A DNA stretch of 24,637 nt from an uncultured archaeon (GTDB lineage: Archaea; Asgardarchaeota; Lokiarchaeia; Sigyniarchaeales; SOKP01), in NCBI GenBank assembly GCA_964525635.1, contig CAZGJX010000067.1:1-24637 (forward strand), given 5' to 3'. Made by a program: the position numbers and the translations under genes. Below the pieces are notes generated by a model. The model ran no database searches. It worked only from the letters and a program-made list of their open reading frames with translations, and was not told the DNA's origin. The stretch's first letter is position 1; the number at the start of each line of letters is the position of its first letter. This document shows, one piece after another, positions 19,528-21,852 of the stretch.

Positions 19528-21852
19528 TTAAGTACCTCCTTTCGTTTGATTTATATAGGTTTGATAATATTGAGTTAATATGGACAAAAACGATGGTATA
19601 CCTTGCCATTTCTGTACAGATAGAGTATCATAAGTTGGTTTTAGATATGGTTTGTACATTTCAAAAAACGCTTTAAAATCGCTAGAATTAACGATCCGTA
19701 ATAATTCTATACTTACAGCCTCAATGGAATCTAATTCTAAACTTACCTTTTCTATCTCTTTTCGAACCAAACCAGACTTATCTTTAAATACATTTTGTTT
19801 GCGCTTAAGTAATTGTATATAGTCATAGATTTTTTCACAAAAACCATCAAAATCGTCGGGTGTAAATTCATGCCCAAGTTCCCTACTCAATCCTATTGTA
19901 GCTAGATCAACCCACCCAATATTAGTACCTTTCAGCGGTATTACGTCTATACCTCGCTCCTTGCCCAGATTGAGTACTTTTAAACTTTCTGTAGAACTTA
20001 CCGATCCTCCGGTTGCTAAAAATATAATTAAATCTATTGAGTCTAAGTTTTCCTCGTCCTCTGGAAGAACTCCATATACTTCGCTTTGTTTTTCGAGGTA
20101 TTCGATTAATTCTGGAAGACGATGAGCCTTAGCATCTTCTTCGCTAGCAATCATCATGATTGCGATTGAAGCACGTTGTCTGCAATAGTCTTTAATTGTT
20201 TCGGCATCGCTTTCGACGACTTCTAACTCTTCGGGAGAGAGAAGATTATTTTTTAGGTCTAATTTATCCAAAGATTCCAATGCCCATATAAAATAAGGTA
20301 GTTCTGATAGTTTATTATCTGATACTGAAAGTTGGGTTAAATTAAGCCTAAGAATATCCTCAGACAATTCTTCTAACTGATTTCCATTTAAAAATAAATT
20401 CACTAAGGAAACCAAATCCCATAAATCGTCAGGTAAATCACTTAATTCGTTATTCATGAGATAGAGATATTTTAAATCTTTTAATTGGGCGATTCCTTCG
20501 GGAATTATACCAATTGGATTGAATGAAAAGTCTAACATAATAAGCTTTTGACATTTAAAAAGAGAGGTAGGAATGGTTGAAATCTTGTTTGACCTCACAT
20601 GTAATTGTAATAAATTCTGAAGGTTTCCTATATCTTCTGGTAATTCTGTTAAATTATTTCCAGTGATCTCTATCTCTTCCAATTTCACTAGTTTAGAGAA
20701 TCCTCTTGGGAGTTTTTTCAATTTATTTTCACTCAATTTAAGGATTCTTAATTTTGTTAAATTATCAAAATTTTCTGGGAGCTCGAGAAGCTCATTCCCT
20801 CTATCAATTATTAGTTCTTCTAAATCCTTAAGGTTTCCAAAATTGTCAGGTAGCGTTTCTATTTTGTTGTTTTCCAGATTAAGATATCTCAATTTTTCCA
20901 AATTCCCAATACACTCTGGCAGATTAACAATATTTCTCCAGCCCACGTATAGCGCGATTACTCTGTGCTCATCACATGCATAACCAAAATGACTCAAGTG
21001 TGGTATTTTTTTCGCCCAATTATCATCTTGAGTTGTTTCTGCCGCTTGTCGGACCATTTGTTGCTGAACAACGTGCTGTTTGAGCATGTTTTGAATGTTT
21101 TGATAGGCTTGTTGTGCGGTCTGCATAGCGATAGTTTCAGCTGCATTTTCGTCCATTCCAATTAACGGCTTTAATTTTGCCATTATTGGATCCGATTGGC
21201 CCACTGTGTTTAAACCTAAGCTAATTACTTCTTTTAAAAGAGATTGATAATCGGGTTTAGTAATCGTATTATAATACTCATTACTAGCTTTTTTTAGATC
21301 TTCCAGAGTCGAACTTTCCGAGTACATCGATTTTATTAATTTATGATACTCTTCTTTATTTAAAATCCTTATTTTAAAATATCTATAATAGAATTGAGCC
21401 GCTAACTTAGCTTTAGTTTTCGCTTTTTCTTCGTCCATGTCCAATAAATCCCTGAATTGTTTTATTGTAGGGTGATTTTCTCCTAATGCAGGAAGCATCA
21501 TATTTAATTGAGCCTCTATTTGACTTTTGTACGCTGGAGTAGTGGTCTGGAGGAATGAGGTAGAATACATATTTTCCAATTGTTCGATCGACATTTTTTC
21601 TTGTTGATCTAATTGTGATTCAGTAGCCATTATACCTTGGTATTGAGCTTGGAGCGGCGATATTGTCATTGCTGCTCTTTGAGCAGTCATTTGCTGTTGC
21701 CGTTGAATAGCCATTTTTTCCATTTTCTCCCTTGTCGCGTCCCGATTTTCGGCACAGGGAATCTCTTCTTTGAGCATTTGCTCCAATTTTTTCATACAAT
21801 CGGCTTCAGATTCAACTAAATACACATCATGATATTTCTTAAGTGAACTCAT
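19528..21852 (-). CDS. LRR-pseudoTIR protein (about 11 LRRs) with a large Gln/Met/Ala-rich helical insertion near the N-terminus
   Basis: LRRs span aa about 296-540. The C-terminal domain aligns with the neighbour's TIR (RASIAI/RASMAI; LPELIEYLEKQSEVY/LPKLGEYLEKKPEVY; IGLSRELG/IGLSKDPG) but has STESLKVL in place of SPDCAHEL. Confidence 0.88.
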   Translation of the reverse strand: MSSLKKYHDVYLVESEADCMKKLEQMLKEEIPCAENRDATREKMEKMAIQRQQQMTAQRAAMTISPLQAQYQGIMATESQLDQQEKMSIEQLENMYSTSFLQTTTPAYKSQIEAQLNMMLPALGENHPTIKQFRDLLDMDEEKAKTKAKLAAQFYYRYFKIRILNKEEYHKLIKSMYSESSTLEDLKKASNEYYNTITKPDYQSLLKEVISLGLNTVGQSDPIMAKLKPLIGMDENAAETIAMQTAQQAYQNIQNMLKQHVVQQQMVRQAAETTQDDNWAKKIPHLSHFGYACDEHRVIALYVGWRNIVNLPECIGNLEKLRYLNLENNKIETLPDNFGNLKDLEELIIDRGNELLELPENFDNLTKLRILKLSENKLKKLPRGFSKLVKLEEIEITGNNLTELPEDIGNLQNLLQLHVRSNKISTIPTSLFKCQKLIMLDFSFNPIGIIPEGIAQLKDLKYLYLMNNELSDLPDDLWDLVSLVNLFLNGNQLEELSEDILRLNLTQLSVSDNKLSELPYFIWALESLDKLDLKNNLLSPEELEVVESDAETIKDYCRQRASIAIMMIASEEDAKAHRLPELIEYLEKQSEVYGVLPEDEENLDSIDLIIFLATGGSVSSTESLKVLNLGKERGIDVIPLKGTNIGWVDLATIGLSRELGHEFTPDDFDGFCEKIYDYIQLLKRKQNVFKDKSGLVRKEIEKVSLELDSIEAVSIELLRIVNSSDFKAFFEMYKPYLKPTYDTLSVQKWQGIPSFLSILTQYYQTYINQTKGGT
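19534..19540 (-). promoter_or_regulatory. Shine-Dalgarno AGGAGGT for the downstream LRR-TIR gene, embedded in the last codons of the upstream gene
   Basis: The minus strand reads AAAGGAGGTACTTAAGTATG: SD, upstream TAA, 2 nt, ATG. Spacing from SD to ATG is 8 nt. Confidence 0.8.

Follow-up and report, generated by a model that had tools for sequence, protein, structure and literature searches.

The window analysed here is a stretch of 24,637 nucleotides (contig CAZGJX010000067.1 of assembly GCA_964525635.1, positions 1 to 24,637 of the forward strand) from an uncultured archaeon of the Promethearchaeota (Loki-type Asgard), whose genome assembly comprises 4.45 Mb with a GC content of ~25-33%. 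It carries two neighbouring genes, A and B, which are arranged head to tail on the minus strand and encode proteins with leucine-rich repeats (LRRs). In both proteins the LRRs are followed by a domain of ~135-145 residues and then by a helical tail (Table 1). BLASTP aligned A to B with 34% identity (E 2e-61) over the end of the LRRs and the post-LRR domain, and LRRs were the only Pfam families found in the two proteins. The post-LRR domain of B has the motifs of a TIR enzyme, whereas that of A, the subject of this analysis, is a predicted TIR domain that lacks all of them. The N-terminal ~290 residues of A matched no Pfam family, and a search of the ESM Atlas with 295 residues gave no usable match. 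The start of B was assigned to the ATG that abuts the end of A (encoding 'MSEKYM', conserved among orthologues), rather than to the upstream ATG at 19609 chosen by the open reading frame (ORF) lister, which overlaps A.

Table 1. Genes A and B of the window and their parts
Feature	Positions	Strand	Residues and remarks
Gene A	19528..21852	-	774 aa; ORF
Layout of gene A			N-terminal helical region of ~290 aa, LRRs, Glu-less TIR-fold domain, helical tail
Pseudo-TIR domain of A	19783..20172	-	residues ~561-690; AlphaFold2 model, structure matches, dN/dS
MMIAS of A (βA)	20143..20157	-	residues 566-570; replaces family F-I-S-H-A
PEDEENLDSI of A (BB-loop/αB)	20035..20064	-	residues 597-606; 10 aa vs 21 in B
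ESLKVL of A (αC)	19972..19989	-	residues 622-627
Val626 of A	19977-19975	-	codon GTA; occupies the catalytic-Glu column
WVDLATIGLS of A			residues 647-656
Retained βD-αD-βE-αE half of A	19795..19914	-	W-x-D-L..IGLSRELGHEF through helix αE
C-terminal helical tail of A	19531..19755	-	alignment, modelled helices, dN/dS 0.155
GGAGGT Shine-Dalgarno-like motif	19534..19539	-	within the last codons of A
Stop codon TAA of A	19530-19528	-	
Start codon ATG of B	19525-19523	-	
Gene B	17045..19525	-	826 aa; LRRs, intact TIR_2-type domain, helical tail
TIR domain of B	17336..17764	-	AlphaFold2 model, structure matches
FISHA of B	17735-17749	-	residues 593-597
LCEQDLTGNIDKFMDDNVPIS of B (BB-loop/αB)	17594-17656	-	residues 624-644; 21 aa, CEQDLTGNID...
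DCAHEL of B	17528-17545	-	residues 661-666
Glu665 of B	17533-17531	-	codon GAG
C-terminal helical tail of B	17048-17290		

Superposition of the two sequences with MAFFT and HMMER reproduced the by-eye alignment of an initial annotation of this locus, in which FISHA of B reads MMIAS in A, the 21-residue LCEQDLTGNIDKFMDDNVPIS is shortened to the 10-residue PEDEENLDSI, and DCAHEL is replaced by ESLKVL with a Val codon in the catalytic position. Every residue and coordinate given there proved correct, including the position of the GTA codon of Val626. Database searches retrieved 32 A-type orthologues, which measure 757-907 aa if full length and are 44-56% identical in the C-terminal region. When 1.84 billion representatives were searched with a profile, 542 members of the family were found. 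The catalytic Glu is carried by 163 of the 209 scored domains of this family; P0144, P0164 and P0194 are Glu-less members other than the A type. The A-type sequences form one clade of 43 tips (support 0.994) on a long stem of 0.52, and none of the 43 has a Glu in the catalytic column (I36 L4 V2 M1); consistent loss of the Glu in orthologues had been set beforehand as a test of the annotation. All 43 also share the same 11-residue deletion, which removes D-L-x-G-N-I-D, and the family motif C-E-x-D-L-x-G-N-I-D is gone from the BB-loop/αB region of A. In βA, the column occupied by Phe in 95% of the family is Met in every member of the A clade, and the column occupied by Ser in 93% of the family is Ile, Leu or Val in 42 of the 43. 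The orthologues of B all keep Glu665, and their βA, BB-loop and αC motifs are invariant.

Analysis of the conserved columns revealed how the losses are distributed over the domain. Among 166 Glu-bearing family members, 27 columns are at least 80% conserved; as the set was defined by the presence of the Glu, that one column is circular. The A-type proteins keep 11 of these columns and have lost 13, all of which fall into three clusters: the βA F/S pair, the BB-loop/αB region, and C..E..L of αC. From βD onward, every conserved column is kept in A, one of them in 77% of the A sequences. The claim that the losses focus on catalytic motifs while the scaffold is retained was borne out by this distribution. 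Judged from the alignment, the losses are clustered more than expected by chance, and the tree and the shared deletion indicate that the loss of catalytic elements is a family-wide trait of single origin and not a strain lesion.

The assignment of the two domains to the TIR superfamily required more than profile searches. Pfam, NCBIfam and PADLOC made no TIR call in A or B, searched either whole or as isolated domains; a TIR profile match in Pfam was absent even at E ≤ 10, and PADLOC returned 0 families at E ≤ 1, with no curated defence-protein model, such as that of Thoeris ThsB, matched. Because no profile matches A or B directly, the TIR label of the initial annotation rests on the predicted fold and on paralogues. 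By sequence, membership of A and B in the superfamily (Pfam clan STIR) appears as a transitive relation through these paralogues. Four paralogues of B (P0014, P0019, P0020 and P0022), which are 45-47% identical to its TIR domain, pass the gathering score of Pfam TIR_2 (PF13676) with 29.6-33.8 bits, and the more remote family members P0068 and P0101 reach TIR_2 scores of 37 and 52.3 bits, respectively.

The domains of A and B were modelled by AlphaFold2 from an input alignment of 23 sequences, with a mean predicted local distance difference test (pLDDT) score in the domain of 84 for A and 78 for B. Structural similarity search using VIA-align against 48,161 chains revealed that the best nine matches of the A model are all TIR domains, with Z-scores of 12.4-10.8 and a root-mean-square deviation of 2.4-4.3 Å over 112-126 aligned residues. 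The ranking is headed by chain B of the RPS4/RRS1 entry 4c6t (Z 12.4), followed by Cat1, AtTIR, RPP1, SARM1, Hydra TRR-2, TIR-1, MyD88 and TIRAP. The best 10 matches of the B model are all TIR or SEFIR domains (Z 14.1-12.5), and 4c6t chain B again ranks first. Using Foldseek, the B model found AbTir (7uxu) first, and its best matches are AbTir, BtpA and the TIR domain of SPARTA. In both predicted models, the Glu/Val column is placed at residue 6 of the helix after βC, which is established as the site of the catalytic Glu in TIR enzymes (see also PMC13732033).

Besides the missing profile calls, three results count against a TIR identity. The lead of TIR domains over unrelated flavodoxin-like folds in VIA-align amounts to only ~1.5-2 Z. 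Foldseek found no match in PDB at E ≤ 0.001 for the whole C-terminal model of A (best 1.1e-3), and its list mixes TIR domains with receiver and flavodoxin folds. Neither a mixed A+B profile nor a B-type TIR-only profile gave anything significant against PDB sequences, the best match of the family profiles (E 0.08) being a SEFIR domain from a bacterium; rows for Rb and the BoNT light chain in this search were rejected as noise on the helical tail. Altogether, the predicted models make the TIR fold of both domains well supported, although not beyond doubt.

Three database proteins of the family, P0068 (946 aa), P0101 (851 aa) and P0065 (482 aa), have two or three TIR-type domains per chain. P0068 and P0101 each combine an intact first TIR (FISHA/FLSHA, C..E) with a second one that has Lys or Ile in place of the Glu but not the A-type deletion; the two proteins may represent a fused form of a live/dead pair. 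When P0068 was used as a query against the 400 genomes of the phylum described below, only its first half was matched, with an identity of 35-53%, and the fused protein remains an unverified database gene call. The helical tail of ~70-80 residues after the TIR domain is common to A and B, with the pattern L..I..S....F.E ... FL. It gave no family match, and could be an oligomerisation module.

The ratio of nonsynonymous to synonymous substitution rates (dN/dS) was computed by the Nei-Gojobori method (NG86) on 11 orthologous gene pairs taken from genomes. The TIR-like domain of A has a median dN/dS of 0.106 (28 pairs, range 0.044-0.229), compared to 0.18 for the N-terminal region, 0.21 for the LRRs and 0.16 (0.155) for the tail, and to 0.121 for the TIR domain of B; dS is ~1.1 and near saturation, so that all of these values are approximate. 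The TIR-like domain is the most constrained part of A by this measure. Because its dN/dS is the lowest within A, random decay is excluded by the codon comparison, which points to purifying selection on the domain, in keeping with the earlier claim that it is maintained rather than randomly decaying. In the A clade, mean column conservation is 0.86 in the βD-αE half vs 0.78 in the N-terminal half. The order is reversed in B, with 0.89 in the N-terminal half vs 0.70 in the C-terminal half, and the conservation of the two proteins is complementary. Just before αA of A sits His577 (20119-20121), which is at least 90% conserved in the A clade ('aHRI') and aligned to a conserved Tyr in B-type TIRs; it offers a tentative parallel to the His that is stacked at the AE interface in plants.

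Of 400 sampled genomes of the phylum, 15 have A, as one copy each, in two families of one order (genus g1 1/4, g2 11/54, g7 2/6 and g19 1/2). The ORF of A is intact in all 15 genomes, and a B-type gene with the intact motif set lies directly downstream on the same strand in every case; A was never seen without B. At the 11 junctions inspected, a GGAGG-type Shine-Dalgarno sequence lies inside the last codons of A, exact (GGAGGT/GGAGGG) in nine and with one mismatch in two, and the stop of A and the start of B abut or overlap as TAAgtATG, TAATG, ATGA or GTGAGTAA. These junctions and the embedded Shine-Dalgarno sequence point to co-translation of A and B in a fixed proportion. The flanking genes differ among all four genera compared; a conserved third gene was considered and rejected, and A followed by B is all that the genera have in common. 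The conserved and, by its junctions, translationally coupled pair makes a partner role of A likely; the more specific role of adaptor or inhibitor suggested in the initial annotation is putative, and A might inhibit, activate or scaffold B.

From the losses in A, their age, the selection on the domain, its TIR fold and the conserved coupled pair, we consider it fairly probable that A is a true TIR-fold, non-enzymatic module that regulates or completes the TIR domain of B in a two-protein receptor. The TIR domain of A lost F-I-S of βA, the BB loop together with most of αB, and Cys..Glu of αC in an ancestral member of one Lokiarchaeial gene family, and purifying selection has since preserved the stripped domain in what would be a non-enzymatic role. 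A and B, the latter keeping all three of the lost elements, would be made from one translationally coupled transcript. A would serve as sensor or regulator through its own LRRs and its private N-terminal helical domain, and would contact the TIR domain of B via the conserved βD-αE face and αA; B would be the executor, presumably by NAD+ cleavage. This could work in two ways. As a repressor and sensor, A would hold B off until a ligand is sensed, as RRS1 does on RPS4. Alternatively, A and B would form an asymmetric 'BE-type' TIR pair with A as its non-catalytic half, in which the BB loop of B docks on the βD-αE face of A and thereby opens the active site of B. The complementary conservation of A and B mildly favours the latter, BE-type arrangement.

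Several points weigh against this two-protein receptor, in addition to the near-saturated dS and the weaknesses of the TIR assignment. Three genomes of 89-99% completeness lack A (with the query used) although they belong to the same genus, and because of them the pair is to be regarded as accessory and patchy. The neighbourhood of the pair contains no recognisable defence island. Physical contact between A and B is something we infer from gene linkage, and NADase activity of B-type TIRs is assumed from their motifs. The direction of regulation and an immune role of the pair are likewise putative.

Four other explanations were weighed against the proposed receptor. Both TIR domains might be assembly scaffolds without enzymatic activity, like the TIRs of animal TLR/MyD88 signalling, in which case the losses in A would only adjust an interaction surface and NAD+ chemistry would play no part. 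MyD88, TIRAP and Hydra TRR-2 are indeed among the best structural matches of both models, and no gene for a receptor of an NAD signal is conserved beside the pair. However, B and 163 of the 209 scored family domains keep the whole enzyme signature (FISH of βA, D-L-x-G-N-I-D of the BB loop and C-x-x-E of αC), and no part of B is better conserved than its catalytic half. Moreover, the losses in A strike exactly the catalytic motifs, which is hard to explain if these motifs had no catalytic meaning, and we regard a pure scaffold as unlikely. It is also conceivable that A works alone with a function unrelated to B, so that their adjacency is a leftover of tandem duplication and the dead domain is an intramolecular lid or an oligomerisation module for the LRRs and N-terminal domain of A. 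The paralogy of A and B makes a tandem origin plausible, and the N-terminal domain and tail of A are conserved in their own right. Against such independence, all 15 genomes keep the pair though its flanks differ in the four genera compared, A was not seen without B, and all 11 inspected junctions have the embedded GGAGG-type Shine-Dalgarno sequence with abutting or overlapping stop and start codons; a solitary function of A thus seems quite improbable.

The two remaining explanations concern the chemistry and the fate of the domain itself. An enzyme with a relocated acidic residue or a different chemistry could be imagined from Glu622 in the A protein of the window, which lies four residues before the lost Glu, and from one orthologue, P0030, with a Glu at position -1. 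Glu622, the Glu of 'STES', had been named in the initial annotation as a possible substitute, and it fails as one: column -4 is variable (E15 D10 N8 K4 Q3 S2 I1) and column -1 is mostly Gln. In addition, the BB loop and the βA Ser are missing in every A-type member and the catalytic column is always aliphatic, which leaves very little room for a relocated acid. A decaying remnant would account for the loss of every hallmark motif and for the failure of every profile library to recognise the domain, but this explanation is refuted by the results, namely the low dN/dS, the ORF intact in 15 genomes, and a βD-αE half that is near-invariant over 43 sequences.

Around the pair, the genes vary from genus to genus. 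In genus g2 (L043:1921-3721, with the same genes in L042, L044-L047 and L049), the quinolinate synthase gene nadA (Pfam E 1e-105) and an isochorismatase/nicotinamidase-family gene adjoin the pair on the opposite strand. The proximity of NAD-metabolism genes to a putative NADase pair is suggestive, but it is seen in a single genus and the synteny may just be inherited. All g2 loci that reach far enough also have a divergent gene for an 816-aa WD40 protein directly upstream of A (L043:3840-6290; cluster c2, 7 g2 loci), which is absent from the window and from the g7 and g19 loci. In genome G016, which has the closest A orthologue to that of the window, a shorter third B-type LRR-TIR gene with intact motifs (409 aa, L041:3841-5070) lies divergently just upstream of A. 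At 411-1604, the window itself encodes a small GTPase of Ras/Roc-like type (Pfam Ras E 1e-26) to which a winged-helix DNA-binding domain is fused (HTH_24 E 2e-6). The N-terminal region of a 755-aa protein at 13191-15458 is repeated and looks extracellular; the protein also has membrane segments and, at its C-terminus, two winged helix-turn-helix domains (HTH_HVO_0163_N and HTH_24). Divergent from A, positions 22098-23633 encode a histidine kinase whose membrane sensor domain is vitamin-uptake-like (VUPS); this gene is not kept beside the pair in other genera.

Among known systems, A and B most resemble the paired TIR immune receptors of plants, in which a sensor TIR without the catalytic Glu and with a shortened BB loop is joined by an executor that keeps both (PMC13732033). 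Like RRS1/RPS4, and also CHS3/CSA1, they are two adjacent paralogous genes for LRR-containing receptors; the sensor-type partner (here A) lacks the Glu and has a short BB loop, and the executor-type partner (here B) has both. The sensor has an extra domain that the executor lacks, and the 4c6t heterodimer entry is the best structural match of the models of A and B. Despite this likeness, the two systems differ in organisation. A and B have no NB-ARC, NACHT or STAND ATPase (Pfam found LRRs only), and their TIR domains are C-terminal to the LRRs, compared to the N-terminal position in plants. They are co-directional and, by their junctions, translationally coupled, whereas the plant genes are head-to-head; moreover, the extra domain of A belongs to no known family. 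Because NB-ARC is lacking, the domain order reversed and the operon co-directional, A and B are not members of the plant paired TIR-NLRs. The likeness is functional and, given the archaeal host and the low identity to plant TIRs (10-17%), probably convergent.

Prokaryotic TIR_2-type NADases (AbTir, BtpA/TcpB, SPARTA TIR-APAZ and ThsB) are close to B, whose best Foldseek matches are AbTir, BtpA and the SPARTA TIR; paralogues pass the TIR_2 threshold, and B has the βA, BB-loop and αC Glu motifs. By contrast, A lacks all three motifs and neither A nor B matches PADLOC, and those systems have neither a long LRR fusion nor a pairing with a dead paralogue. The animal adaptors MyD88, TIRAP/MAL and TRIF are non-enzymatic TIRs that act by TIR-TIR assembly, and are among the best fold matches of the A model (Z 10.6-10.9). 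They differ in their long and functional BB loop, an element central to their assembly but deleted in A, and in having death or other domains instead of LRRs; in addition, they are not operonic.

We found no description in the literature of Asgard or Lokiarchaeota LRR-TIR pairs or of prokaryotic Glu-less TIR partners, and a survey of Asgard defence mentions TIR only inside named systems. Work on RRS1/RPS4 states that heteromeric TIR NADases are otherwise unknown (PMC13732033), and dead TIRs that control a live partner have so far been documented in plant paired NLRs. It is possible, and we advance it tentatively, that a heteromeric TIR machine arose independently in the Loki-type Asgard archaea. 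In it, a dedicated dead TIR, which has neither Glu nor BB loop and whose βD-αE face is hyper-conserved, would be the obligatory non-catalytic partner of a live TIR carried by a second LRR receptor, and would gate or complete the active site of the latter; sensor and executor would work without a STAND ATPase, as a prokaryotic counterpart of RRS1/RPS4. The ~540 representative LRR-TIR proteins of the family are mostly missed by PADLOC and Pfam, and A and B offer a small two-gene system for studying how the active site of a TIR is gated by a non-catalytic TIR. If the proposal is true, an NB-ARC engine is not needed for a split between sensor and executor, which can also arise in the prokaryotes nearest to eukaryotes.

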